From the NCBI GenBank assembly GCA_000091205.1, contig AP006498.2: DNA of 64,000 bases; one strand, written 5' to 3'. The position numbers and the translations under genes are program-made. This document shows, in pieces, positions 9,501 to 61,298 of this stretch; within the stretch, counting starts at the first letter, position 1; the number at the start of each line of letters is the position of its first letter. The notes beneath the pieces are model-generated. The model was not told where the DNA came from. It did no database searches and was given only the letters and a program-made list of their open reading frames with translations. This DNA comes from Cyanidioschyzon merolae (taxonomy: Eukaryota).

Positions 9501-11505
9501 GTCTGGTTCTTCTTACAAGAGGTGAGCGTATCGAAGAAGACCTCCGCCTATCTACCTGCCTGTCTGCCAAACAAATATTGACGGAACCCAACCGCTTTCC
9601 AAACCAGGCGTGCCACAAGTCTAACAGTACTCTTCGGGCAAGTTTCCAGGTTTTGGCGCCACATCCTACGCGCTTCCGCAGGGTGCGTTTCATTCAATGC
9701 CGGTACACGGCTGCAGGCTTTCGTCGTACAGGCGGAGCTGCGTTCCCTTACTCCTCCACTTTGGAAACAACCTCTGCGTTATCAGAGAGAAAGGCTTGAA
9801 CTGCTGTGTCCTTGACGTTCATCGCGATGTTCGTTTATTTGCAGAGTTTCAGTTCTGCTCGCATGAGGCCAGTTGCAATATGCAAGGCACAATAGTGTCG
9901 GACTTGTACACTTTGTCGTTAATTATGCAGCACTGCAGGCAGGAACTCTCGCGAGAATAGTTAATGGGAGGGGGGTTGGAACTGTGAAGTGCCTCAACAC
10001 GGCATGTGCCGGTGACTCGGTTTGTCATGTTCTTCAGCAACCAGGTAGGCAGCCTCTGGGAGTCATTTTGTGCCGCTGCAAAAGAACCACCTTGCACCAG
10101 GGAAAACGTTCTTGTTTCCGTGAAACAAAAATAGGCGAATCTTAGGACAAAAGTAAAGATCGGTCTCTGTGATATAAAATCAGCCTCCGAGTTACCTGCG
10201 AGGAATGTGGAACTCGTGGAAAACAGCGGTCCTTTATGAGTGAAAGCCGTTGCATTCCACATGCAACGCTTTTCCGGTAGCGAATTCGGGTCCAGGTACC
10301 TCAATGTACATCATCGACTTGTAATTAATCAGACAGCGCTGTGGCGGCCACGTAGGATGGTAGATGCGTGCGCTCCTGTCCAGGCACGAAACTGTCAGCG
10401 CTCGCCTCTGTCTCCACGCCAGCTCACGGATGGTGCGATACCATGCTACGACTTGCATGAGATTCATGCACTGAAGAAGAGAAGCATGAGACAAGTCAAT
10501 TCGTAGTGGCATGCAGGCACAGACTCGTTCTATCACAAGCCAATGTTCCCTGTGCTGAAGCGTTCTTCAGGAGAATCAAAGTATGCCACCGCGCTACCCT
10601 GAGCGTTTTGGCTCCGTGCCTGTTCTGCCGCCTTCACCAAGCCGGGGCTCGAATCATTTCGATATCCTTCGGATGCTTGCTAGTGCGTTACGGGCATTTC
10701 CAGAGCACCGATGCGAAGCTGACTTCTGCTCCAGTGCCTCGGCATTGAAGTCTGTGCTCGCATGCGTTGACGAAGAATACACGGCGCGTTCGAAACTGAC
10801 GCGCCGTTTCCGGCCAATATCCCAGACGGACAGAGCTCTTCGCGGAGTCATTACTCTGGTGAACGCCACGCAACGCAGCTATCATGCGCCCGAAGACGGG
10901 ATTCGACCGTACCCAAGAGCGCCCCTGCCCAAGTGCGGCACACATCTCGTAAATGGATCCCATGTGATGGCCTCTTGTAGCGAAACTGCTACCGGATACG
11001 TTATCCGAGGCGAAACCTCGGCAAATGCCAAGATACACCGGCGTTTGCGACCAGTTCAACTGTCCCGGAGTGTGACTGCAAATCTTCGTAGAATATAGAG
11101 ATTCCCATCGCAACATATCTTTGTCTGGGCGGAAACGTTTGCAAAGTAGTTCTCCACGGAGCGACTCTTGGTGGGCGTTTCCCGCCACGGAGCGCAAACT
11201 GGCCCCTTGGGTGCGGCTTCCTGATGGCACTGTAGCTGCGCGACATGTGTGTGCGAACGAGTCGTTCCTGGGTACTATGATGTACGGAAACATGACAGTA
11301 ATGATTGCTTTCCCTGCATGGGGCCTCTTCGTGTTGTCGGCTCGCTTTCTGTGGCCCAGGGCTCTGCTAATTTGATGTCTGACGAAAATGGAAATCGTCC
11401 AATAAACTAACTCGGACGTACATGCGAAATTTTTGGATCTTTCCGCAGTCATCAACACCAGCCTTGGCGGATTCTCTGTGACTGCTTCCATTAGATTTCT
11501 CGTAG

Positions 11506-11965
11506 CTACGACTTTAAATACGCCGGTCGATCACCTCCCTCAAGATCTGTCGTCAGAGCTCGACGGATATTGATGCCAGCATTAAAGTCCCGATTTCGCC
11601 GTCTCAGGCTGGTGCCAACGCATGCCATGCCCAGGCAAAAGTTGCGATCTTCGCTTTGTCTGCCATCTCCATTTTCTCTCCAGAGCAGCATCGATACGCC
11701 CTTCGCAGCAGCGACTCTTGGTAATGGTCACGCTTTTCCTGTTTGTCCAATACGCTTCCTCCTCTGAGCGCCGCCCTGTGGCGCGTGAACGCTTGCCCCA
11801 ACGCTCACAGCACATGCACGTGCTGGGTACAGAACCATCCCGCAAGTGCCGTCCTCCATCCACGCGCCCGGTACCGTACCCTGTGATCGACAGCTTATTC
11901 CGGGTAAGTCTGCGGCAGGTGCTCTGCCCGCTGAACACGAAAGCGCACGCCACTCTATTCGACAA
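11506..11965 (-). pseudogene. TnpB/Fanzor-like C-terminal remnant (zinc ribbon plus RuvC-III), frameshifted
   Basis: SVPSTCMCCERWG resembles the TnpB motif pSSkTCsnCG. In a second frame, RNFCLGMACVGTSLRRRNRDFNAGINIRRAL resembles RtFtCpnCG...DRDvNAAiNI. The upstream ITGYGTG sits at the RuvC-II position without the Glu. Confidence 0.5.
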
Positions 11966-41340: not shown

Positions 41341-41623
41341 CGATTAGCCAAAATCTACGTGCAAAACCTTTAGCGGTAAATACGGCACTTAAATGCCTTG
41401 GCTGCACAGCTAAAAAAGTTCAGAAAAAATCGAAAGGCAGAACTTAGCGATTAGTTCATCTTTACCTGCCGCGGCGGCTAGATCCGGGATGGTACGCTCG
41501 GTAAGATCTTGCTGCAGATTCCAAACTAGGTAGTGGTCAGCACAGCGTTTCAACGTGCTCGACGAACAGACGAATCTGCAAAAAAACCCTGACGTCGTAC
41601 GCATAGGGCCGAGGTGTTGGTCT

Positions 41624-42937
41624 ATGTCACTGGTCAAGGACGAGAGCACGGAAACGAGGTTTGTTCCGCTAGAGCGTGCACCGCGGAACGTTTTCAAGCG
41701 GGAAGTATTCAGTTACAAAGATGAGCAGTTTCCGGAAACCCAAGGTCCCAGGGCCGGAAACATTGCCAAAATCGTGCACTGGAGGAACTGCTTCCCACTT
41801 CCTATCGAGTACTCGGTGTATTTATGCGATCCTCTTTTGAGGGCCGAGAACGCCCTCCTGGGTGAGTGCTTGCTACCGGCGAACTTGTCGAGGAGGTTTT
41901 GCGTCGTTGACGATTCCGTTTGGGCAATATATGGAGAAAAATTGAAGGCATACTTTGATGAACGAAATATAGCATCTAAATATGTGGTCTTACCAGGAGG
42001 GGAAGAACATAAAAACATTGGCGCTGTGTTCCAAGTGTTGGATGCCCTTTGTGACTTTGGTCTTCACCGTAGGGAACCGATTCTAGCTATTGGCGGCGGC
42101 GTGGTCCTCGATATTGCGGGATTCGCAGCATCCCTCTATAGGCGTGGTGTTCCCTATATTCGGGTGCCCACGACATTGCTTGCAATCGTTGATGCCAGCG
42201 TCGGCGTCAAAACTGGAATAGACTATACGCATACTGTGACTGACGAACATTTCAAGAACAGGATGGGTGCGTTCTACGCCCCAGTCGCATCATTTTTGGA
42301 CAAAACGTTCGTCGCTACCCAGGACGAAAGACAAATCATTAATGGGCTCGGAGAAATCTTGAAACTGGCCCTTGTTCGCTCTGCAGAGCTCTTCGCTCTT
42401 CTGGAAGAGCACGCAGCAGATTTGGTTCGTATGAAGTTCCAGCAATCGTTTGTGCCGGACCGTGTAATCGAGCTCAGTGTCGAAATCATGCTTGAAGAGT
42501 TAGGGCCGAACCTTTGGGAACAGAAGCTCGAACGATGTGTCGACTATGGCCACACATTTAGCAAAGTGCTCGAAATGAAATGTTTAGGTGAACTCTGCCA
42601 TGGAGAGGCGGTTAACATCGATGGATTTTTCTGTGTCCTACTCAGCGAAGGCCGTGGATGGCTGGATAGCAGGACAAGGAACCGCATCCTGCGTGTTATG
42701 CGTGATTGCTGCCGACTTCCATTCTATCATCCACTCTGCGAGGACGTGGACACTATGTGGCAGGCTGTTATGGATGGGATCGAACATCGCGATGGGCTGC
42801 AGAGGATTCCTCTCATTTACCACGAAATTGGTCGGTGCACTTTTGTGAACGACTTGACAAAGGATGAAATTAAGGTCGCAGCCCAAAAGCTGGTACATAT
42901 CAAGAAGAACTTGTCCGAAGCGCAGGCGTCTCAATAA
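41624..42937 (+). CDS. 3-dehydroquinate-synthase-like sugar phosphate cyclase (DHQS superfamily), possibly a sedoheptulose-7-phosphate cyclase (EEVS/DDGS-like) rather than AroB
   Basis: The Rossmann and metal-site blocks GGGVVLDIAGFAASLYRRGVPYIRVPTTLLAIVDASVGVKTGIDY ... KNRMGAFYAP ... DYGHTFSKVLE ... HGEAVNIDG match the DHQS fold. At the position of the DHQS motif LNLGHTFGHAIE the sequence has VDYGHTFSKVLE: Asp replaces Asn268 and Lys replaces His275. The ORF-track start at 41555 is GTG; the first ATG is 41624. There is no obvious transit peptide. Confidence 0.75.
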   Translation: MSLVKDESTETRFVPLERAPRNVFKREVFSYKDEQFPETQGPRAGNIAKIVHWRNCFPLPIEYSVYLCDPLLRAENALLGECLLPANLSRRFCVVDDSVWAIYGEKLKAYFDERNIASKYVVLPGGEEHKNIGAVFQVLDALCDFGLHRREPILAIGGGVVLDIAGFAASLYRRGVPYIRVPTTLLAIVDASVGVKTGIDYTHTVTDEHFKNRMGAFYAPVASFLDKTFVATQDERQIINGLGEILKLALVRSAELFALLEEHAADLVRMKFQQSFVPDRVIELSVEIMLEELGPNLWEQKLERCVDYGHTFSKVLEMKCLGELCHGEAVNIDGFFCVLLSEGRGWLDSRTRNRILRVMRDCCRLPFYHPLCEDVDTMWQAVMDGIEHRDGLQRIPLIYHEIGRCTFVNDLTKDEIKVAAQKLVHIKKNLSEAQASQ

Positions 42938-43511
42938 ACTCGAGCGCGTTCCCATCAGGATCTCTGCAGAAAAGCGCTCTTCTGCCGCTTCGACTCATCG
43001 TGAAGGGTATGCCTTTTTCACGTAGCCTTCGTTCCAAAGGCTCAAGGGCGTCGACCGTCATGGCGAGGTGGTAGTCCCTGCCTCCATGCGCGGGTCGGTT
43101 TTCCCGAAAGCTGGGTTCCGGTATTTCGAGATTGTCTGCCACCATCAAGTGAATTTGAGTTGCACCCACTTTCACGAAAGCTCCTCCAAAAGGTAACTTT
43201 GGATTTCTGAGGTGAGAGTCGTCTTCCATACCAAGCACACCGACGTAGAAATCGAGCGAACGGTTCAGATCACTCACGATGATCCCCGCGTGCTGGATAC
43301 CACCATAAGTAGCGACTCCATTCTGCGCCACGGTGCAAAAAAGTTTGGGGAGCGAACTATCCACGAACAAACGTTTCCTCGACCCTGCCGAAAAGTGTAT
43401 AGACCAGTTTCGACTTAGGCGAACTGAAGACTTGCAAACTTCACAGGTCAAAGGCCCGCGAAAAGACACGAAGGGCGAAAGGAAAGCAGACGAATAGCTC
43501 TTCCCGAACAT
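42900..43511 (-). CDS. glyoxalase I / VOC-family protein with an N-terminal presequence
   Basis: GGIQHAGIIVSDLNRSLDFYVGVLGM ... GGAFVKVGATQIHLM ... HLAMTVDALEPLERRLREKGIPF ... RRALFCRDPDGNALEFIE is a VOC (glyoxalase/bleomycin-resistance/dioxygenase) fold. The ORF-track start at 43658 is GTG. ATG at 43511 gives MFGKSYSSAFLSPFVSF..., with Phe near the N-terminus as in a red-algal transit peptide. Its 3' end overlaps the DHQS-like gene by about 37 bp in a convergent arrangement. Confidence 0.65.
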   Translation of the reverse strand: MFGKSYSSAFLSPFVSFRGPLTCEVCKSSVRLSRNWSIHFSAGSRKRLFVDSSLPKLFCTVAQNGVATYGGIQHAGIIVSDLNRSLDFYVGVLGMEDDSHLRNPKLPFGGAFVKVGATQIHLMVADNLEIPEPSFRENRPAHGGRDYHLAMTVDALEPLERRLREKGIPFTMSRSGRRALFCRDPDGNALEFIETPALRTSSS

Positions 43512-43721: not shown

Positions 43722-45800
43722 CAATTCCGCCTTGAGAGGTTGCCCCGTAAAGTTGGCTCTCGTCAACTCTGAGGATCTCGTCTCGAGCACAGCACATCTT
43801 CTGATATTAATAGCAGCGTAAATGTCATGGTTCATGAACTTTATTCCATTCTTTCAGTTCGTTGTACTCACCAGTGCGAGCAGTCTTCGAAAATGTGCCC
43901 CTCTTTCCGTTTGCTGTTCTGTCAGCGCTCCGTACTTTTCTACATCCTCAGGGCTTCGCTGGCACTTTTCCATCTCGACCCTCTGAAGCGTGCACCCCAG
44001 CTCATAGTGCATACAGGACGTTTGGAAATCATCTACCAGTATTGTGACAAAACGGTGTGTACATTTCTTGTACGCTCTCGTCGATGGAGCAGGTGTGCCT
44101 TTTTTGGACGCCCATCGCGCCGCTCCGTGTGCTACTACGAGAATTTTTCTCGTGTCCGCCTTGAGGGCGCTCAGCTGATTGATGAAGTTGGCGAATGCAC
44201 GCTGTTTCCCATAGTACAGGCTCATACGCGTACGAGCGCACCAGAGCCCTGTGTACTCTTTTCACAGCTCCTCGTTATGAGCAGCGCCAACTTTCATGAA
44301 TTCCTGAAAAGCTTCAAAGTTCTCTACGCGGCTCGGCAGCTGGCTGATCGCTTCCAGATGCTCCTTCACTCCTGCGTTCCATGTCTCAGTTTTCTTCCTC
44401 TCATTCATTATTCCCGATTCTCGGCAATATATCGCTCTCGAGAACTTTAAAAGACGCATGTCTTTTTGACGTAAGTTTGAGTCAGTGCCATCTTCCGCAC
44501 ACTTGGGTGCTGTGATGGCCATGATATTCGTCTTCCCAGTGTCAAGGCCAACGACAAAGTCGTTATCCTGCACTTTCTGTGTCGCAGGATCCGCCTCCTT
44601 CTCATCTTCCTGCTTCGTCACGGGCGATCTCGCAGATGGGCCACGATGATCTGCCTTCAACCTTCGACAGTGTACACATAGGGCTACTCCATCGGTCTCG
44701 ATGATGCCTGCGAGTGCCTTCTGCCTACTCGTTTTGAGACATTTAAAATCGAAGATATTCTTCCAGTACGTCTCCCGGTTTTCGCCGGTGAACTCTGTCA
44801 CCCTTACATCGAACTCCGGACAGATCTCCTTCGTGATGCCGAAAAGGGATGTGGAGTCGATTGTCACAAAACGCCACTTGATCTTACGGAACAGAACGAC
44901 GTTGAAGCGCGTCCCCATTACGACAGCCCTCCGTCGCTCCTGCTCTTCGCTTCCGCCCTCACTCAGCTTCATCTCCACCTTGCGTTCGAGTTCACGGTCC
45001 AAAAATACAAAATAGCGCAGGATGAGGGGATAACACTTTTTCTTATCTTTTTTCGTAGCTGATACCTTTTCTGCTGCATTCGCTAGCCGCAAGACTGCAC
45101 GGTGCTCTTGAACAGCCGCAGAGATCACAGAAGCTCCATTCTTTCTCCTGCGTGATGTCTTCTTGTGGACGAAATCTATCTCCTGTTAATATTGGATATC
45201 GTCCGTGATGCTTTCGACAATGATCCATCTCTCTTTCCGAGAGAGGCCCGGGTACAGTGCAAGCGTGGCGCGTATCATGAAGATTTTGAGTTTCATGGTC
45301 AGATTGTTCTTCAGCTTCGTGAGATACTTCGTCGCCCGTAGGTGCAAATATCCCCGTCACCCCCGTATCGAGTACCGTTGAAAAGGCACTCGGGGTGATT
45401 TTCTTGTAGGACGTGTACTCAATCAATTCTGCTCGACGCTTCCCGTGTGCCAAGCATCAGGCGGAGAATGAAGGTCATGTTGAAAAATTCTTCCGGTACC
45501 TCTACTGTTTTGATGTCCGCCACGTCGTGATGCATCTCCCTCACCATATGCCTCAGTTCTAAAGAAGTGTTTCGGACACTGCTGGAGTACGAGGCGACTC
45601 GGTTTCTGATTGCCTCTTGGACTTTTTGCTCGTACGAACTCTTGATGTGTCCGAGAAGAGACGCTTTCCCTACCATCTCGTCATACTGTCGTCTTCCGTG
45701 CAGCTTTTGATGTCTGACCTCCCTTTTCTGCTCCTTCATCTTCCCCTATTCCTCCGGGCTTGGCACTGTTTTTCGTTTTTTCCGGCAGCCGGCGACACCG
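43722..45800 (-). mobile_element. F element (about 2.1 kb): the longest TnpB/Fanzor-like element in the window and a relative of R1
   Basis: The low-coordinate terminus cttcTTTCCGAGCaattccgccttgagagg is homologous to the R1 terminus ctTTCCGCAGtcatcaacaccagccttggcgg. It encodes the minus-strand TnpB-like ORFs at 43854..45739. Its high end abuts Tc1-like relic C. Confidence 0.55.
43854..45739 (-). pseudogene. TnpB/Fanzor-like (OrfB_IS605 RuvC-fold) protein gene with one in-frame TGA (44262..44264) and upstream frameshifts
   Basis: ORFs 44262..45128 and 43854..44225 share a frame, separated by TGA plus 12 sense codons. DNDFVVGLDTGKTNIMAITAP matches the RuvC-I motif vGIDlGiknlA. KILVVAHGAARW lies at the RuvC-II position with the Glu replaced. 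FVTILVDDFQTSCMHYELGC matches V.p.yTSQ.C..CG. The RuvC-III DxNAAxNI block is missing here but present in R1 copies as RDFNAGINI. The upstream ORFs 45043..45453 and 45419..45739 are in other frames. Confidence 0.5.
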
Positions 45801-47479: not shown

Positions 47480-48020
47480 CACGAGATATTCCAGGATGCT
47501 TATCAAAGGGCGTTGAAGGCTCAGTGCAGAACTTGCTCCCGCACATGCACACTGGTGAAATCACACTGTAACAAGCCGCTCACCTCCGATTGCATCCCCA
47601 TTTGAAGTTCGATCATCTTACCGCACACAATCCCTTGCATCCGGGTCAGTTTCACGCTGGAATTCTCTAACGGGTTTGGCGAGAACCCGTGCTCGAGATG
47701 CACGGATGTTTTCCCAAACCTTCCATTCATATCGCGCATAATCGTTACTACACTAAATGTACGCCCTTGTGGATGGAGCAGAGGTGCAGCACATGCGTGC
47801 TATATTACGTCCAGCGCCATTGGCTATCATAGAAAGACGTGACTTATCGGTCATTTCCGTTCCCAACTCATTGAACAAGTTCGTTATTGCATGCCTCTTG
47901 CCTTTATAAATCAGAAACCGTTGACAACCCGAGCGTGTCTCGTGTGCTTCTACCAAAGGTCGTCTGCATGAGTCATTGGGATGCTGGTGCACTCTCTGAC
48001 TGAGGCGAACAACGCATCGC
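47480..48020 (-). mobile_element. F-family fragment (copy 6), same orientation
   Basis: The minus ORF 47753..48022 has GKRHAITNLFNELGTEMTDKSRLSMIANGAGRNIARMCCTSAPSTRAYI, compared with the F element GKQRAFANFINQLSALKADTRKILVVAHGAARWASKKGTPAPSTRAYKK. ORF 47521..47739 has LQCDFTSVHV, compared with LVDDFQTSCMHY. Confidence 0.5.
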
Positions 48021-49206
48021 ACTTTGCTCGATTCAGTGCTCAGAGTCTAGGGATCGGTCCTTGTGTTGTCATAACGCTTCTTGACCTGCATCCTGGCATC
48101 CATTGTGCCGGACTTACCATGAGATCGAGCCATGGAAAAGCTGTGAAGCTCCATCCGGTTTCCGGTCAAATATTCGTCACTACCGCCTTGTTCTAGTGGT
48201 ATAGCGGCGGGCATCATATCCTTGGAGCCAGGATCCACGCCCCTCACGAAATCTTTCTTTCTTCATGGAACTTGAAGGAGTGAAAATGAGAGCCGTTGCA
48301 TCACTCAGGCCTAGTTATCAAGAAGTGTATGCAGATGAATATTCTGTTGGTCTCCGTGGTCCTCGAAAAACTCTTTCCACTTTGTTCCTATATAAAGCAG
48401 GGTCCTTGAACGAGCTTTACCTATTCTTATTGCTAGGTTGTTCGAGTGCTTTGAAGTTTTATGCTTAGGCGAACCATGGCATATAGAGAACCGCCCATAG
48501 TACACTGTGCTAATTCCTACAAAGATATGATTGGGCTGTCAAGCGACGTATGAGACCATGTCGAATAGACGCGTGAGGATTCGAGGGTGGATTCTGCTTT
48601 GTTGTCCTTGGTTTCCTGGAGGAAAACGTGGGAACGAAAGATGCACGCAAGGCAGGTGTTATGTTTGATGAATTCTTAAGACAAGCCCTCTGTGGGTATG
48701 AGGGCTGAAATAACAGCATGAGCTTGCTCGATCCGAAGTGATACGCGCCCCCGCTGAGGTATACCTTCCGGTACTACTAGCTCGTGATTGTCCTCTAACG
48801 ACTTCCCTGTATCCCATCCATTCGTGCCCTCCTTTCTGGGCCGGTACTCTGAGGCTACAACGCCGAGAGGTACGCCTTACGAAGCGCTCGAGATTAACCC
48901 GCAAATAGCTTTTGAGGTTTATTGATACTTTTTGGCAACTACGCCGTAGATATTCCAAAACCCGACTGAGCATTGCTGGGCGTCAAGGTGTTCTGGAGAC
49001 CCTGTTTGCAAATCCCTTATGCTACGTTCCAACCGTCTTGCATCGTCTGTCCCGAGCATCAGTTCATTTCTATTGGGAGTTTTGATCAAAAAAATAGGTA
49101 GCCATGTGGACAGCCTGCAGACTTGTTTGCGGAACTCGGATGTTCAGCTGCGTGATGGAGTGCGTCAAGACGAAACACGCTAACCGAGCATTGCTCGAGT
49201 AAGTAG

Positions 49207-53330: not shown

Positions 53331-54077
53331 CTCAGCCAAAACTTGCTTACAGTGCCCTTCTCCACGGTGCTCCAGCTCGAAAGAACAAAGGTGCTCACAG
53401 AAAATAGTTTCTGTGTTGATAGCGATGTGCGTCGCATTGCATTCGTACCAGCTTCAAGCAGAGTACGCTTCGTACGAGGCTCTCCTTGTGTGAATATGAA
53501 ATAATTGTACAGAATCTCCCATCAGGTGAACAGCATCAAGCCGAGCATGCTTCCACTGAGGCTCCCCTTCAGTAAATTAGAAATGATTGTACAGAATAGC
53601 CCATCAGATTGCATGCGCTTTTCGGGACGGACGTCGATCACCGGCCGCTCATATGCTCCAGCGCAGCTACGAGTGTTCTGCAGCCTATAGCACGTTTCTG
53701 CAGCCCTGTTTAGCTGGAACTACGACAGCTCTTCGCGTGGTTTTCGTTTGGGCACATACTGTGGGGTGCTGCCTAGCTGGCCTGGGTGAAGTCTTCGAGC
53801 GCACGACGACGCGCCTTGAACTTGCTTGGTTTTGCGGTACACTTGTCGCAAACGACGCGCTGCATCCGAGCGAAGCGCTGCTTCCTCTCTGGGCTAGTTT
53901 TGGGGCCATACTGGAAGCTGCTTCTGGTCGCCTTATATTGCCAGTGCTACGGTGGAAGCTTAGCGGTGGCGTCTAAGGAGGTGCATCGCAAACAGGCTCA
54001 ATCTGCGGCGAATACGACTCGCGCTAGAGAACGGCACGGCGCCTTCTGCTAAGCGTCTTGGAGGGGCTGCTTGCATC

Positions 54078-57000
54078 ATGGACAAATTTTGTTCGAAGCT
54101 TAGCTGCAGTGATGAGGAGAGTGCTCGTCAAAGTTCTGAAGGCCGACCTACGCTAGGCGGTGAAGCTCTGGATTTCGGGGCACCGCCAGCGCTGCCCTTT
54201 CCACCAGACGCGAGTCTGGGACTCTGTCGGCGCTTGGAAATCCATGGAGCCACCTGCTCATGTGTATGTGAAGCCTTTGGTAACATGGGCTCACATCTCG
54301 ATAGCCTCGTGCCACTGAACACTGCTGACGTCTTGGCCAAGGTGCGAAGTGCTGCGAAACGCCTCGCCACTCGTCTGGACGAAACTGCCGATGAAGAGCG
54401 ACTGCGCCAGACCTGTTTATCGCTCTGCGATTTATTTGGAGACGGTATTCATCACGATTTGATCCAGGCTGTGCTTGATGCTGGGGTCGTTCCGCGAGTC
54501 GTGAGGATCCTCGAACCACTAATAGATGATGATGGAAGTGGCTCGGGCACGACGCAAGATGCGGATGGGCATACCTCGGACGCGTTTCATTCGCCAATGC
54601 AACGACAGCGGGACGGAGCCGCGACATCTCGACTGAACGAGGAACGGACTGCGGAGTTGTTAGAGACTCCTGACAGATCTGGAGATTCTCCGGGACCGGA
54701 GATGAGACACAGTAGAGTCACGAGTCGCGATCATGCCAGAGCTAGCTCTGGGCATGCGGCAAGCACCGTACGGAAGCGCAGTCGCAGGAGAGAGGTATCC
54801 TTGGGCTTGCAGTCCGCTGCTTTGCAGGTGATCGGGAACATTGCTTGCGGAGACGACCGTCAAACGCAGGTCATTATTGATTGCCCGAACGCTTTGACGA
54901 TTTTGCGAACGCTGCTAGCCTCTGTGGAGCCATGCATTCAGAAGGAATGCTGCTGGATCATTTCGAACATTACAGAATCCGCGCATCAAGTGCAGGATAT
55001 TGTCAGGGCTGGCATTCTAGAACCGCTTGTGGGCATCTTCTCCGGAGGACACGAATCCTGCGATGAGGATGCTGCATGGGTTCTCTACAACGTCACAGCT
55101 AGTGGCGATCCGGAGCACATACGATATTTGGCGAATATCGGTGGCATCTCTGCTCTGTGCGCTCTGATTCTCTCGCCTGCTGAGCTAGAGGTTGCCTGGA
55201 AGGGCTGTGCAACGGTTGCAGCTGTTGCGTTGCACGCACTGTCGAATATGCTCACCGTTTTACCAAACGAGATGCCGTATCGCATTGCTGCGGAGTACGG
55301 TGTGGAATGTCTGGATCTTCTTGCACATGGAGGTGGCCGCCACATCGAAGATGACGAGAACAGACGTCAAGCACGCGAATTGCTGAGTCGTCATTTCCAG
55401 GGCAAGAGCGTCTCGGAAACCGCCGCTGCTCGAAGAAGAAGTGCAAATGAGACGCCCATGTTAGCATCTCTCGGATCCCAGAGGCCGTCTGCCTCCAAGA
55501 TGGAGGCTTCCGCAAACGACGCCCAGGTGCATCTCGTTGCAAGTGGCACTGCCGGCAAACATGCGCCCCAGATTTGTACGGACGAATCTGTACAAACATC
55601 TACATATATAGATGAAGTGGACTATGCGCAAGCGTGCTCGACCGCGACGACTGGCGGCCTCGTGCAGACAGGTTCCGCGGACGCCGAGCGACTCTGCGAA
55701 TGCTCTGCGTCTGAGGTGACTTTGAAGCAGCTCCCCTATGGCGATATCAGCGATGTCAAGCAGATGCGAAACCTGCGGGCATGTTCGTTCTGCTCTGGTC
55801 TTGAGCCTCGGTATGACGTAGACGCAAGCGACTTTATTGGGTGCACCCGGCGTGACAAGTGCACTGCGCTTATGGCGCGTGCTGTGCGAGTGGATCATAA
55901 TTCGTGCTTGGAGAGCATCATCGATGCTTGGTTGACCATGGACGATGTTGATCTGGTCGTGGAGAGGCTTATTCCAGATGCAGGAAAAATTTATGTTGAG
56001 TATCAAGAATTTGTCAGTCGTATTTGCAATTTCCTGCGAAGCGTGATGATGGAAACCAGCACGCTCTCGTGCGCTGTTCAGATGGTTCCACCTGAGGTCG
56101 GTACTGGCACGCCCGGGACGCAGCCGCCTTGGCCGAGCGAAAGAGCGAGCAGCCTAACTGCTTCGAGGTCCGTCGACTGTGAACAATCGACCCAAGATAG
56201 GAATCGTTGCTCTATCATTACGCTTGCGTCGCAACTGGGAAGAGCGGAATGTCTGCAGACGATCCTAAGTCGCATGCAGCCGCTGCTAGTTCCCGAGTGG
56301 AGGGATTTTCTGTATTCCTCGCTGCTAGCTGGTGCCGCCTACAAGGGTCACTTGAACGTTGTGCAGACGTTGCTCGCGTATTGGTGCAATTCCGTTCAGG
56401 AGAATGGGAGGACGCGTTCCATGAGAGGCTCAGCGAATGAAGGTCACGGTACGCTACCGCTGGAAACGATCGATTTCAATGCCCTGCATCTCGCTGCAGC
56501 AGCTGGACAATATAAGACATGTAGCCTGCTTTTGAAGGGGTTTCCGGAAGCGCTGAACTTGACGAGTTCAATGGGACACACCGCTTTGAGCTTTGCTGCA
56601 CTTTTCGGATACACAGATGTTTGCCGTCTTCTGCTGGAAAAGGGAGCAGATATCTGGTCAATGGACACTTACCAGCGAACAGCACTGCATCTGGCTTGTG
56701 TTCACGGTCGCACGGACACCGTGGCATTACTCGTGGAACACGCCAGAAAAGTTCTTGCGGATCAGGATCGAGACGCTTTCACGAAGTGGCTGAACGCCCG
56801 CACGACGACCGGCATAACCGCACTACACTACAGTATACAAAGTCGGGTGCTGGCGTGTGTAGAGCTCCTGGTGACGAACGGTGCTTGCATCAAGGATCGA
56901 TTACCGAATTCAGGGCCGAATCCGCTGCTGGTACTTGCAGCGGATGCGGATTCTCTGGAAATCGTGCAGTTTCTGCTGGAGGCTGGGGCCCCGGTGCGAT

Positions 57001-60000
57001 CCGTCGTACCGCTGAGGATTCGGATTGGTGACACAAGCGACACGCTCTCGCTTTCGTCCCCAGAAGATAGTTTGCACGCCGAAATTGAGGATTTTTTCAC
57101 GCCGCTGCATGTTGCAGCGAACAAAGGTAGCTTGCAGCTAGTGCAGATGCTCCTGGAATCCGGCGCTGATGTCAATGTTCGCGGTGTCACCGGTTGGTCT
57201 GCGCTTGATCTAGCGGTGCTGAACGGTTTCGATGCGGTTGCGAGCTTGCTGCTCTCAAAGGGCGCCATCGTGGATCCCCATCTGAAGATTATTCCAAGCG
57301 GAATCGTCGGGCAAATGCCCAGTGCCAAGACGCTGGTCCAGATTGCTGCAATGAACCACCGCAAGGATTTGGTGCGGATGTTAGTCGAGCGCCTCCGCGT
57401 TCAGAGCCTTAACAGTGAGTCGGCGAATGCTGGAGTCTCGAGCGCATGTCTCGTCTCTGCGTCTCCAGCTGGTGGTGCTGACGTCTCCACGACATGCAGT
57501 GTCGAGGGACCCGATACCGGCCAACATGGTGCCGGCGAGTCTGTCGGCGCTCTTGATGCTCCAAACGATCGAGGAAGCGCTTCAGTGGATGTAAGCGAGT
57601 CCACCGGTTCCAAGAAGCGCCAAGAATCAGATAAGGACTCGCAGCGAAATCGGGAGCTGCGACGACGGGAACTGGAGGCGAACGATGCGCGAGAGCGCTT
57701 GCGAGATGCCATCCAGACGCGCTCTTTAACGAAACTGCAGGATGCTATCGGGATTGCAAACCGGGTGATACTGCAGCTGGCCGCTAGTTACGTCAAATCC
57801 GGCTCCGCCAAACTGGTTGGTCCGGAGATTGGGCTCGGAGCTGAGGTGGAGCGAGCGCGTCGTGTGCTCGCTGCTCTTCAAGAGCAGCAGCAGCGCGTTG
57901 CCGCGGACCGAGAGCGCCTCGCGTTGGAGGCCCGTCAGGATGCCGCACACCGCAAACTGTTAGAGTCCATCGCGTCCTTCTTTTCTTCCAGCGATGTTCG
58001 CGTATTTGACAAAGCGATTCGGCGGGCATCCAAAGCGGGGCTTGACCCCTCTGATAGCGTGATGCAAAGTGTCACGGAGCTGCGCTCTCGCTGGACTGAA
58101 ATGCAAGATGCTGCTCGAGGATTGGATGATTATCTCAACGATGAACATCGGCTCGGAGAGGACGCAGCGACCGTGGTACGTGGATTGGAGGGCATCATTT
58201 CGAAAGCAGAGCATGCATTAGAGCGTTTTTCCGCGTTCAGCCCCGAGGCGGCGAAATGCAGCGCTGCGGAGCGGGTCCGGGATAGTATCAGGCGAGCGAA
58301 GGAGCGAGCGAATGAAGTTCAGAAACTAGTCGAAGAGAAAGCTCGCTTATTCGCGGTTGAGGAAGCCAAATGCCGAGAAATATGCGAACGCCTTGATCAA
58401 ATATGCGCAGTATTGCGGCAGGGACGCTCGCTCGTTGATGCGCCCTCGTCGCTCACAGAGGCGGAAAACGCTATCGAGTTGTTTGCTGTGCAGGTTACCA
58501 AGTCGCTGCAGGATTCGACGCTGCAACTGCGGGCTGAGGAGCATTTGGAGCAGGCTCGTCGGGCGCTGCAGAAAATCGTTCGAAACGAGCGCAAGAGGTT
58601 GCGCTCAGTTGCTACGCTGGAGGATATTACGGCAATCGATGAGCTGATCGATTCAGTGCGGCAACTTGGACTCAAGGCACTAAGTGCGGACCTCTCGAGC
58701 GCCATGGAAGTTCGAGAGCGCAGAATCCTGCAGAGGGAAGCGCTCGCTGACTGGGAGGAGGTTGAAGCTCGGCGCTCGTCGGCGCTGGAGCTTGACGAAG
58801 TGTTGGCACTGCAATCGCGCCTAGAGCAGTTGGGCCTCATCGAGGCTGCTGAGAAGGCACGTCAGCTGGCGGACCACCTTGCTCGAGAGCAGCGTGCGGC
58901 ACAAACGCTGAAGACAGCGACGGATGAAGCTCGCGAAGCGCTGTCCTCTTACGCAGAGGTTGACGCAGACTCGTGCCTTCAGCAGCTTTTGAGCCGAGCT
59001 GGAGACTCGCTGGATCGCGCAAGTCTGGAGAAACTTCGTCGGCTGCGCGTCGCCATCGAACGGGCAAGAAAGTTTGACAGCTTAGCGGAGATCGTCCATG
59101 AGGCACAGCACGTGTACGAAGCTTTCCTTGAGATCCAACGGGAGCGACTGCAGCGTATCTGTAACTGTTTGCGGGCTGTACCTTTGGAGGATGTTCCTAG
59201 CTTGGTTCAGCTCAAAACAGCACTGTGTCATGATAACAGTGAAAAATCCGAGTCCGATACTGGCGTTACTCGTGATGAAGCCCGTTGCCTTGTAGCCGCG
59301 CAAGTGCTGCGAGAGATTTCTGATCGAGTGCAAGTGCTCATGAACGTCTACGCGAACGCGCTGAACGTTGACCCGGAGAATGCCGAAAACAGCTCTCGGG
59401 GGCCTTACTCTGTGATACCGTCAGCGCTGGTAGATTTGAGGTCCTGGCTGGAGAAAGCGACGTGTCGCTGTACTGAGCTTCACGAGGCTGCCCGCCAGCT
59501 GCAAGAGTCTCGCGCCACCGAGTCGCTTATGGTAGAATCGAACGCGGATGGTGCTTCGGAGAAGGCGCGGAGCCAAACACCAGAGGTAGTGGATGTTACA
59601 AGCAAGCTAGCATCCCCGTTGGAACTGGGTTCATCGGTACCTTCAGAGATGCCTTCGTCGGGCGAGCGAAGCGTATCATCGCAACGTCGCTCCGGTCGAA
59701 GAGCTCGAAACCGACGAGGCAGCGCTTCTGCAGTACCTGCAGCCTCCGAGTCCCGCGAAGCTGCGTCTTACATAGAGAGCGGCGCGGAGCGCATGACCGC
59801 GTCGACGACTGTCGACAGCCATGCGGAAGACAATCAGGCACGACGCAGTACCAAGGGGAAGAGTCTCTCCGAGAAGAAGAAGGGCGGCAAGGCAGGTAGA
59901 TCTGCGGACAGTGGAATCGTATTGACGGACGCTGGAGCGGACGAAACAGAGAGTGTGCAGCGGAAAGCGGGAAGCGCCGATCCTGTGGCAGAAGAAGTAA

Positions 60001-61298
60001 GTCGACGCGCAACGCCGAGTCTGGAGACGACGCATCGGAAACGACAAACAGCGAAACGTGCGGAAACGGGTGAGTCAGCGGGTACCGGCAAGCAGGAGAC
60101 GAGGCCATCCGAGGGATCCGGCATCCGCGAGTCAGGCGAACTGGTCGCACCGGAGGCTGGATGCCCTCACTATTACATCTGGACCAAGTCGAACATTGTT
60201 GTCTGCGGCAAATGTGGCGACGTGAGGATCTCACATAATCAGAACTGGCTCGAGCGCGTGAAGAAACGGACGCAGAAGAAGAAGGATCAGGTGCCGGCAG
60301 AGTTTCTGGAGGCTGTGGAAAGCGCATTGCTCGCACGCCGGCGCCGGTCTACCTCCCGGAGTGATACGAATCGAGCACCTGGCGACGAGCAGACTGCTGC
60401 TCTCCAAAATGACGACTCGTACGATAGTGTGCCGTACACTGGCCCAGCGACAAGCACAGGTGATGACTCGCGAGCGAGCGATCCGCATCAAGACCGCTAT
60501 CCACGGCCAACGAGCAGTATGTTCTGGACGACTCCAGCAGCGTTTCCGATCGGGGAAATGAGTTTTGTTGCGAGACCTAGCGTCATGGAGCGTTCACCAT
60601 CGAGCTTCCAGATGCGGCAGGCGCGTCTCGGGTATGCAGCGCCCGCAGAGTCCCTGGAGATGAGTTCGCGTCCAGGTACGCCTGCTCGTCCCGTATCGCC
60701 ATTTGTGAATGCGTTTCCCTCGCCAGGTCGAAATGTGGTCGATGGACGTGCCAACACGCCGCTCTACGCAGACATGATCCTAGGCATGCCAGATACGCGC
60801 TTGAGTGTCGCAGCGAACGGTGCAGCGCGCTCGCCCTGCGTAACCTTGTATCGAGAAGCCCGAGCGGCAGCTGCCACTCCTATGGGGCGGTATCCACCAA
60901 GTCTCGGGGGCGACGTTTGCGATGCAAACGCTGGTGTCTGGTTGCAACCGGGCCTGGTGGCCGGAGCGACAACTCAGGTACCGTTTCCGAATAGTATTCA
61001 CGGAAGTGGCCAAGCTGCGGAGCCGTCCCTGGACCCCGTGGCTCATGGGCACCCTCTGCGCGACGAGCGCGGCCACCTTTTTGGGATGACTGATGTCTTC
61101 CATGGACATGGCGTGCTGAATGGAGTCGACGACGCCCTGCTATCGTCTTCACCTGTTGGTGTTGGGGACTCGGAGTTTGCGAGTCAGAATTTCGGCTTTA
61201 ACATAGATGCTATCGTGGATGAGAATCCACAACCTCGGACAACTTCGAAAGACAAACTGGCAGTAGAAAGCGATTCTTCTCAGTATAGGATCTTTTAA
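54078..61298 (+). CDS. giant (2406 aa) armadillo-repeat plus ankyrin-repeat plus coiled-coil protein with a Ser/Ala-rich tail
   Basis: N-terminal importin-alpha-like ARM repeats (QAVLDAGVVPRVVRIL; ALQVIGNIACGDDRQTQVIIDCPNALTILRTLL; CCWIISNITESAHQVQDIVRAGILEPLV). At least five ANK repeats (TALSFAALFGYTDVCRLLLEKGADI; TALHLACVHGRTDTVALLVEHA; TPLHVAANKGSLQLVQMLLESGADVN; SALDLAVLNGFDAVASLLLSKGA). A long heptad-rich central region (residues about 1150-1800). ATG confirmed at 54078; uninterrupted 7.2 kb ORF. Confidence 0.8.
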   Translation: MDKFCSKLSCSDEESARQSSEGRPTLGGEALDFGAPPALPFPPDASLGLCRRLEIHGATCSCVCEAFGNMGSHLDSLVPLNTADVLAKVRSAAKRLATRLDETADEERLRQTCLSLCDLFGDGIHHDLIQAVLDAGVVPRVVRILEPLIDDDGSGSGTTQDADGHTSDAFHSPMQRQRDGAATSRLNEERTAELLETPDRSGDSPGPEMRHSRVTSRDHARASSGHAASTVRKRSRRREVSLGLQSAALQVIGNIACGDDRQTQVIIDCPNALTILRTLLASVEPCIQKECCWIISNITESAHQVQDIVRAGILEPLVGIFSGGHESCDEDAAWVLYNVTASGDPEHIRYLANIGGISALCALILSPAELEVAWKGCATVAAVALHALSNMLTVLPNEMPYRIAAEYGVECLDLLAHGGGRHIEDDENRRQARELLSRHFQGKSVSETAAARRRSANETPMLASLGSQRPSASKMEASANDAQVHLVASGTAGKHAPQICTDESVQTSTYIDEVDYAQACSTATTGGLVQTGSADAERLCECSASEVTLKQLPYGDISDVKQMRNLRACSFCSGLEPRYDVDASDFIGCTRRDKCTALMARAVRVDHNSCLESIIDAWLTMDDVDLVVERLIPDAGKIYVEYQEFVSRICNFLRSVMMETSTLSCAVQMVPPEVGTGTPGTQPPWPSERASSLTASRSVDCEQSTQDRNRCSIITLASQLGRAECLQTILSRMQPLLVPEWRDFLYSSLLAGAAYKGHLNVVQTLLAYWCNSVQENGRTRSMRGSANEGHGTLPLETIDFNALHLAAAAGQYKTCSLLLKGFPEALNLTSSMGHTALSFAALFGYTDVCRLLLEKGADIWSMDTYQRTALHLACVHGRTDTVALLVEHARKVLADQDRDAFTKWLNARTTTGITALHYSIQSRVLACVELLVTNGACIKDRLPNSGPNPLLVLAADADSLEIVQFLLEAGAPVRSVVPLRIRIGDTSDTLSLSSPEDSLHAEIEDFFTPLHVAANKGSLQLVQMLLESGADVNVRGVTGWSALDLAVLNGFDAVASLLLSKGAIVDPHLKIIPSGIVGQMPSAKTLVQIAAMNHRKDLVRMLVERLRVQSLNSESANAGVSSACLVSASPAGGADVSTTCSVEGPDTGQHGAGESVGALDAPNDRGSASVDVSESTGSKKRQESDKDSQRNRELRRRELEANDARERLRDAIQTRSLTKLQDAIGIANRVILQLAASYVKSGSAKLVGPEIGLGAEVERARRVLAALQEQQQRVAADRERLALEARQDAAHRKLLESIASFFSSSDVRVFDKAIRRASKAGLDPSDSVMQSVTELRSRWTEMQDAARGLDDYLNDEHRLGEDAATVVRGLEGIISKAEHALERFSAFSPEAAKCSAAERVRDSIRRAKERANEVQKLVEEKARLFAVEEAKCREICERLDQICAVLRQGRSLVDAPSSLTEAENAIELFAVQVTKSLQDSTLQLRAEEHLEQARRALQKIVRNERKRLRSVATLEDITAIDELIDSVRQLGLKALSADLSSAMEVRERRILQREALADWEEVEARRSSALELDEVLALQSRLEQLGLIEAAEKARQLADHLAREQRAAQTLKTATDEAREALSSYAEVDADSCLQQLLSRAGDSLDRASLEKLRRLRVAIERARKFDSLAEIVHEAQHVYEAFLEIQRERLQRICNCLRAVPLEDVPSLVQLKTALCHDNSEKSESDTGVTRDEARCLVAAQVLREISDRVQVLMNVYANALNVDPENAENSSRGPYSVIPSALVDLRSWLEKATCRCTELHEAARQLQESRATESLMVESNADGASEKARSQTPEVVDVTSKLASPLELGSSVPSEMPSSGERSVSSQRRSGRRARNRRGSASAVPAASESREAASYIESGAERMTASTTVDSHAEDNQARRSTKGKSLSEKKKGGKAGRSADSGIVLTDAGADETESVQRKAGSADPVAEEVSRRATPSLETTHRKRQTAKRAETGESAGTGKQETRPSEGSGIRESGELVAPEAGCPHYYIWTKSNIVVCGKCGDVRISHNQNWLERVKKRTQKKKDQVPAEFLEAVESALLARRRRSTSRSDTNRAPGDEQTAALQNDDSYDSVPYTGPATSTGDDSRASDPHQDRYPRPTSSMFWTTPAAFPIGEMSFVARPSVMERSPSSFQMRQARLGYAAPAESLEMSSRPGTPARPVSPFVNAFPSPGRNVVDGRANTPLYADMILGMPDTRLSVAANGAARSPCVTLYREARAAAATPMGRYPPSLGGDVCDANAGVWLQPGLVAGATTQVPFPNSIHGSGQAAEPSLDPVAHGHPLRDERGHLFGMTDVFHGHGVLNGVDDALLSSSPVGVGDSEFASQNFGFNIDAIVDENPQPRTTSKDKLAVESDSSQYRIF

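Follow-up and report, generated by a model that had tools for sequence, protein, structure and literature searches.

The subject of this report is one gene in a 64,000-nucleotide stretch (the window) of contig AP006498.2 from the red alga Cyanidioschyzon merolae (assembly GCA_000091205.1). Positions 41624..42937 on the plus strand form a single uninterrupted open reading frame (ORF) of 437 codons with an ATG start and a TAA stop at 42935-42937 (a longer, GTG-initiated version starts at 41555). By exact-sequence look-up, its translation is 100% identical over 437 residues to XP_005537849.1/BAM81813.1/UniProt M1VK68, the product of CYME_CMP183C (hereafter CMP183C), a nuclear gene of strain 10D. 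[quoted passage not shown] This classification is already known. The database product name of XP_005537849/BAM81813 is 'probable 2-epi-valiolone synthase' (Cyanidioschyzon merolae strain 10D), i.e., a C7-cyclitol synthase and not the shikimate enzyme AroB, and the published phylogeny of Osborn et al. 2015 (eLife 4:e05919, PMC4426668) has it as EEVS: CYME_CMP183C is placed among the algal EEVS in the supplementary table, and an identical sequence is headed 'Cyanidioschyzon_merolae_strain_10D_XP_005537849_EEVS' in the source data. JGI pipelines label the protein type '3-dehydroquinate synthetase', and a literature search on CMP183C returned nothing.

Reference sequences of 3-dehydroquinate synthase (DHQS), 2-epi-valiolone synthase (EVS), desmethyl-4-deoxygadusol synthase (DDGS) and EEVS were taken from the same source data and aligned with MAFFT, using the numbering of Aspergillus nidulans DHQS (AnDHQS); the active-site comparison was rebuilt from these sequences and covers 13 positions. 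The features of the gene are the following.

41624..42937, plus strand: coding sequence (CDS) of CYME_CMP183C, predicted EEVS-type SH7P cyclase, 437 amino acids (aa), intronless (100% identity to XP_005537849; Pfam; best PDB match ValA 4P53)
41666..41695, plus strand: N-terminal motif PLERAPRNVF, residues 15-24, common to the aligned algal sequences and not in the aligned bacterial and animal EEVS
42092..42106, plus strand: glycine-rich motif GGGVV, residues 157-161, the Rossmann (NAD+) motif of the preliminary description; GGG is invariant in the alignment
42188..42217, plus strand: VDASVGVKTG block with D190 and K196 (AnDHQS D146 and K152)
42227..42253, plus strand: loop THTVTDEHF, residues 202-210, in which the algal clade alone has 5-6 inserted residues, right before K211-N212 (AnDHQS N162)
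42353..42364, plus strand: E244 (metal ligand, AnDHQS E194) and K247 (AnDHQS K197)
42539..42574, plus strand: VDYGHTFSKVLE with D307 (EEVS signature, ValA D281), H310 (metal ligand) and K314
42599..42613, plus strand: HGEAV, in which H326 is the third metal ligand (AnDHQS H287)
42782..42796, plus strand: EHRDG, in which H388 aligns to ValA H360 (Thr in DDGS, Ile in EVS, Lys in DHQS); invariant column of the alignment

The protein belongs to the sugar-phosphate cyclase superfamily (DHQS fold): Pfam detects both the N-terminal DHQ_synthase domain (PF01761, 1.4e-34) and DHQS_C (PF24621, 6.2e-19), and the glycine-rich nucleotide-binding motif and three metal ligands are present. The full DHQS scaffold noted in the preliminary description is indeed there, with every quoted motif in the order given (first residues: GGGVV 157, VPTTLLA 181, VDASVG 189, KTGIDY 196, KN 211, GAFY 215, VDYGHTFSKVLE 306 and HGEAV 326). 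The metal ligands E194, H271 and H287 of AnDHQS are E244, H310 and H326 in CMP183C, and the catalytic core R174, D190, K196, N212, E244, K247, H310 and H326 is retained. At the motif that reads LNxGHTxGHAxE in true DHQS, CMP183C has VDYGHTFSKVLE, and the two substitutions first noticed there, Asn268 to Asp and His275 to Lys, correspond to D307 and K314 in an ungapped block of the alignment.

The fold, the GGG motif, the three metal ligands and the residues D146, K152, N162 and K197 are shared with the AroB-type DHQS of A. nidulans (1DQS) and E. coli. The fold, the Pfam DHQS domains and the JGI product name are what could suggest that CMP183C is the shikimate-pathway 3-dehydroquinate synthase. 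The substrate pocket differs, however, since K250, R264, N268, H275 and K356 of DHQS are all five replaced, by M289, E303, D307, K314 and H388. Pairwise identity to DHQS is 24-29%, and both NCBIfam equivalog scores fall under the cut-off (aroB TIGR01357, 204.9 bits vs 305; NF004852, 197.7 vs 333). Among all PDB sequences, the closest solved relatives are the structurally characterised EEVS ValA (4P53, E 1.4e-83) and DDGS (5TPR, 1.5e-63), with the best DHQS at 3.3e-43 (3ZOK). CMP183C is also not the sole DHQS-fold gene of C. merolae: Huang & Gogarten 2008 (Genome Biol 9:R109, PMC2530860) listed for C. merolae a 3-dehydroquinate synthase that is shared with green plants and has beta/gamma-proteobacterial affinity; it groups with plant and gamma-proteobacterial DHQS. 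The Cyanidioschyzon row of their alignment reads ...CKAAVVAADERE..RAILNFGHTFGHAIEA..WLHGEAVAAG... in machine-read and noisy text, in which the motif is unambiguous; the row, with its LNFGHTFGHAIEA motif, carries the canonical DHQS motif set and is clearly not CMP183C. A separate AroB, whose absence from the genome was to have implied that CMP183C is the shikimate enzyme, is thus documented. An AroB identity, already refuted by sequence, is in our estimate next to impossible, and the preliminary assignment to the SH7P cyclases is borne out on every count: by the nearest solved structure and the family cut-offs, by phylogeny, by the residues of the active site and by the presence of a separate canonical DHQS.

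The assignment to EEVS is carried by three EEVS-defining residues. AnDHQS K250 is M289 in CMP183C (ValA M263), a position that is Met in EEVS and DDGS and Lys in EVS and DHQS; AnDHQS N268 is D307 (ValA D281), where every aligned EEVS has Asp, both EVS and DHQS have Asn, and DDGS have Ala; and ValA H360 is H388, for which DDGS have Thr, EVS Ile and DHQS Lys. It had been supposed that Asp268 separates all SH7P cyclases from DHQS, which is too broad, as DDGS have Ala and EVS keep both Asn and His. Because Asp268 is specific to EEVS, CMP183C would be of the EEVS type, which opens gadusol and C7N-aminocyclitol pathways, and not of the DDGS type, which opens those to mycosporine-like amino acids (MAAs). 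Osborn et al. 2015 (PMC4426668) reported that two residues tell bacterial EEVS from DDGS. Among the 150 best 50%-identity cluster representatives (database of 1.84 billion proteins), all 140 sequences with a readable motif have Asp at the 268 position. If the two distinguishing residues are ValA D281 and H360, as we assume, CMP183C is of the EEVS kind at both.

A DDGS would be an MAA-type cyclase making desmethyl-4-deoxygadusol. The DDGS of Anabaena variabilis (Ava_3858, 5TPR) is likewise an SH7P cyclase of the same fold, is the second-best structural relative of CMP183C and shares Met at the 250 position, and other red algae make MAAs. Where CMP183C has Asp (268), His (ValA 360) and HGEAV, Ava_3858 (35% identical to it), like the aligned DDGS altogether, has Ala, Thr and HGHAV. 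The nearby O-methyltransferase and ATP-grasp genes of an MAA cluster, for which the preliminary description had recommended a search, are not found among the 23 of the window's long ORFs that Pfam scans covered. In the tree described next, CMP183C lies among EEVS and the two DDGS branch apart. We therefore consider it very improbable that CMP183C is a DDGS.

Pairwise identities of CMP183C are 41-47% to bacterial EEVS, 38-40% to vertebrate EEVS, 35-37% to DDGS and 28-31% to EVS. In a neighbor-joining (NJ) tree with 100 bootstraps, CMP183C falls in the EEVS group on its own red-algal/stramenopile branch, with the two DDGS on a separate branch and the deep nodes weakly supported. The alignment and the phylogeny called for in the preliminary description thus agree, the one by the residues D307, M289 and H388 and the other by placement with EEVS. 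ValA matches CMP183C in fold, in the metal ligands, in the catalytic K/N/D/R set and in its M263, D281 and H360, at about 41.5% identity across 398 aligned positions. It differs in having Pro288 for K314 and in lying within an antibiotic gene cluster, which CMP183C does not, and the algal protein has a loop 6 residues longer before KN and an N-terminal extension of about 50 residues bearing PLxRAPxNVF. The vertebrate enzyme (zebrafish LOC100003999), which opens gadusol synthesis, is, like CMP183C, a eukaryotic stand-alone cyclase of the EEVS branch whose three EEVS-defining positions are D, M and H; identity is about 38%, the 275 position is Pro instead of Lys, and the vertebrate gene adjoins that of the bifunctional methyltransferase-oxidoreductase (MT-Ox; PMC4426668), of which there is none among the scanned ORFs of the C. 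merolae window. The GenBank/UniProt name '2-epi-valiolone synthase' is imprecise, because characterised EVS (Amir_2000 type) keep the DHQS-like K250, N268 and H275, at which CMP183C has Met, Asp and Lys, the EEVS pattern at the first two.

Judging by homology, the enzyme would bind NAD+ and hold a divalent metal with E244, H310 and H326, and it is probably cytosolic. Sedoheptulose 7-phosphate would be cyclised in the manner of DHQS, i.e., by transient oxidation, phosphate elimination, re-reduction, ring opening and intramolecular aldol closure, and the expected product is EEV (2-epi-5-epi-valiolone). The sequence comparisons establish the fold, the conserved catalytic residues, the EEVS-specific residues and the clade to which the protein belongs, and substrate, product, metal and compartment are all predicted from the homologues.

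Several observations weigh against a function as EEVS. The clade of algal sequences to which CMP183C belongs is unlike every characterised EEVS at one active-site position, with Lys314 in place of Pro288 of ValA; that Pro presumably forms part of the published 14-site fingerprint of EEVS, and CMP183C does not have it. The clade also has the loop insertion of 5-6 residues before N212 and the conserved N-terminal PLxRAPxNVF, both of which bacterial and animal EEVS are without. Our literature searches turned up no open-access paper in which a member of the red-algal/stramenopile clade was assayed. Finally, the 23 scanned long ORFs of the window hold no candidate for an MT-Ox, O-methyltransferase, ATP-grasp enzyme, kinase or aminotransferase, and so lack the adjacent MT-Ox of a gadusol pathway; the sole methyltransferase-like ORF among them is a PEMT/ICMT-type gene 20 kb off, and the neighbours are ribosomal protein L1, a ubiquitin-conjugating enzyme, a phycobilisome linker and other ordinary genes. 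In Porphyridium, Ectocarpus and one florideophyte contig, the neighbourhood of the cyclase likewise yielded no conserved partner gene.

Lys314 itself is real and no alignment artefact, because the VD(Y/F)GH(T/S)FS(K/P) block is ungapped. The equivalent of AnDHQS H275 is Pro in classical EEVS and in DDGS and His in DHQS and EVS. The D...K pattern is present in 120/120 of the closest database homologues, those named to an organism being red algae or stramenopiles (diatoms, brown algae, Tribonema, Chrysoparadoxa), and a cluster of the bolidophyte Triparma from the representative search is likewise of the Lys type. Among the 150 representatives mentioned above, the 275 position is Pro in 99 and Lys in 8. 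The Lys-type algal clade is a recognisable subfamily, which a 2015 study had sampled and designated EEVS: the red-algal/stramenopile 'EEVS' group of Osborn et al. 2015 (PMC4426668) lists CMP183C together with Galdieria XP_005706140, Chondrus XP_005713525, Ectocarpus CBJ27882, Thalassiosira and Phaeodactylum. At 50-68% identity, these proteins and CMP183C all carry ERCVDYGHTFSK, together with the N-terminal motif and the inserted loop residues, and otherwise diverge as ordinary orthologues do. The suggestion that Lys at 275 marks a distinct variant is right in that the residue is genuine and clade-wide; it is no discovery, the protein having been named in GenBank and labelled EEVS beforehand.

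These same characters raise the question of whether the clade is a functionally distinct cyclase, which would use the same fold and chemistry to make another C7 cyclitol stereoisomer or to act on another sugar-phosphate substrate. Its Lys314 is universal among the closest homologues and rare among the diverse representatives, its loop insertion adjoins the substrate pocket and is, like the N-terminal motif, its own, and its NJ branch is separate with modest support (bootstrap 67). Outside vertebrates, MT-Ox was reported in Aureococcus and Coccomyxa only (Osborn et al. 2015, PMC4426668), and neither organism has a sequence row in the available part of the source data. There is also a precedent in EboD, which proved to be a mannose-6-phosphate cyclase (PMC12904256). 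On the other hand, D307, M289 and H388, all three of the EEVS-defining residues, are present in CMP183C. Bacterial proteins with Tyr or Leu at the 275 position stand under 'Bacterial EEVS' (Osborn et al. 2015, PMC4426668), one row of the sequence file being headed DDGS. The position thus tolerates residues other than Pro in proteins listed as EEVS. A divergent bacterial clade, probably this Tyr/Leu type, was reportedly found in 2017 by Osborn and colleagues to be authentic EEVS, which would speak for tolerance of change at the position. We regard a distinct cyclase as unlikely on balance, though it deserves to be kept in mind, and retain the EEVS assignment as the probable one.

In the deep-branching Cyanidiophyceae Cyanidium caldarium (L002 7910..17618) and Galdieria yellowstonensis (L003 10001..16720), the EEVS-like gene adjoins a myo-inositol-1-phosphate synthase gene, and squalene epoxidase and inositol monophosphatase genes lie a few genes beyond; in Cyanidium a short-chain dehydrogenase gene follows the gene of VOC/glyoxalase fold described below. 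This grouping of cyclitol genes is seen neither in the C. merolae window nor in Cyanidiococcus. Because the adjacency to myo-inositol-1-phosphate synthase and inositol monophosphatase is conserved in Cyanidium and Galdieria, one may speculate that the Lys-type cyclases, in red algae as in the secondary-plastid lineages descended from them, are a distinct and ancient eukaryotic cyclitol synthase, the product of which feeds an undescribed pathway that is possibly linked to inositol or osmolytes; we hold this to be rather doubtful.

As it stands, the result confirms the existing annotation. Its interest lies in a conserved EEVS-like enzyme across red algae, diatoms and brown algae, lineages without a reported gadusol partner MT-Ox. 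Gene targeting by homologous recombination is possible in C. merolae, which with its very few introns makes it a convenient organism for the biochemical question.

Among the distant metagenome homologues of the EEVS branch, natural fusions are frequent, all of them with Asp/Pro: ROK-cyclase (P0251, P0252, P0254 and P0262; N-terminal ROK-family domain, about 730-760 aa in total), AMP-binding-cyclase (P0247; adenylating enzyme) and cyclase-NTP transferase (P0276; nucleotidyl transferase). The EEVS-branch domain also occurs within several proteins of 2,400-2,650 aa.

Downstream, the cyclase CDS runs into a convergent gene on the opposite strand.

42900..43511, minus strand: single-domain VOC/glyoxalase-fold gene, 203 aa, ATG at 43511 and stop codon at 42900-42902 (Pfam Glyoxalase, 3.8e-14)
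42900..42937, no strand: 38-bp overlap of the convergent cyclase and VOC CDSs, tail to tail (ORF coordinates)

The tail-to-tail 3' overlap seen initially is thus confirmed at 38 bp. The exact database match of the VOC protein is a C. merolae 'hypothetical protein, conserved'. Its first 65 residues form a basic N-terminal extension, rich in Ser/Thr and with a net charge of +7, whereas the first 50 residues of the cyclase include 8 acidic residues. As far as composition alone can indicate, this is consistent with the earlier statement that the VOC protein has a presequence and the cyclase none, and it points to different compartments for the two.

It was also suggested earlier that the VOC protein acts on a keto-cyclitol product, for which we found no support beyond adjacency. 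In a more specific form, the cyclase and the overlapping gene would make up a cyclitol module of two genes, with the VOC protein serving as EEV epimerase in the manner of CetB or ValD, both of them VOC-superfamily EEV epimerases. Cyanidiococcus yangmingshanensis and Cyanidium caldarium have retained the overlapping pair, as C. merolae has, despite rearranged flanks, with comparable overlaps of 26 and 38 bp in Cyanidiococcus and Cyanidium; a 38-bp overlap of coding sequences, however, by itself resists separation by rearrangement. The VOC neighbour is conserved beside the cyclase in these three Cyanidiaceae only; in Galdieria, Porphyridium, Ectocarpus and one florideophyte contig, no copy of it lies 10 kb or less from the cyclase. 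Its nearest relatives are gammaproteobacterial proteins of about 125 aa (55-60% identity), which in two genomes adjoin a lysine-biosynthesis-like gene set (dapC/D/E-type by Pfam domains) with no cyclase nearby. When 80 bacterial EEVS loci with 10-kb flanks were searched by tblastn with the C. merolae VOC domain, 2/80 gave weak matches (27-29% identity, E about 3e-4). A putative organelle-type presequence on the VOC protein and none on the cyclase also speaks against the module. Such a module with an epimerase is improbable in our view, and so is functional coupling of the two genes in general.

The pair (41624..43511, vs 10001..11867 of the Cyanidiococcus locus L001) appears to be inverted as a unit relative to its flanks between C. 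merolae and Cyanidiococcus; the flanks consist of the ribosomal L1, UQ_con, ankyrin-repeat giant and NIF/BRCT genes. Directly upstream of the VOC gene, at 43743..45401 on the minus strand, a multi-copy protein family of about 520-590 aa is represented by a degenerate copy with 4 in-frame stops, and a second remnant of the same family lies at 47735..48253 (minus strand). The first relic is 58% identical to P0404, an intact member, across 580 aa. JGI metagenomes supply nearly all of the family's 177 database matches, and its precomputed Pfam tag is PF26935; our Pfam, NCBIfam, PDB sequence and PDB profile searches were all empty, and the AlphaFold model of an intact member (predicted local distance difference test score 34) is too poor to use. 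Intact members contain VVDADPGNTNI, AYGAGRW...VDEFRTS and FVNLDFNAAIN, which by motifs may be read as TnpB/Fanzor-like RuvC I-III; in the window copy the motifs are degraded to VDDF and DIYAAIN. The transposon-like relic stands at one edge of the cyclase-VOC pair in C. merolae, and it is not at the Cyanidiococcus locus. Farther along the window, two tandem 77-nt copies, 78% identical and spaced by 82 nt, occupy 53449..53607 in the intergenic region upstream of a 2406-aa ORF (54078..61298), which is taken as the ankyrin-repeat gene by its position and size compared with Cyanidiococcus.

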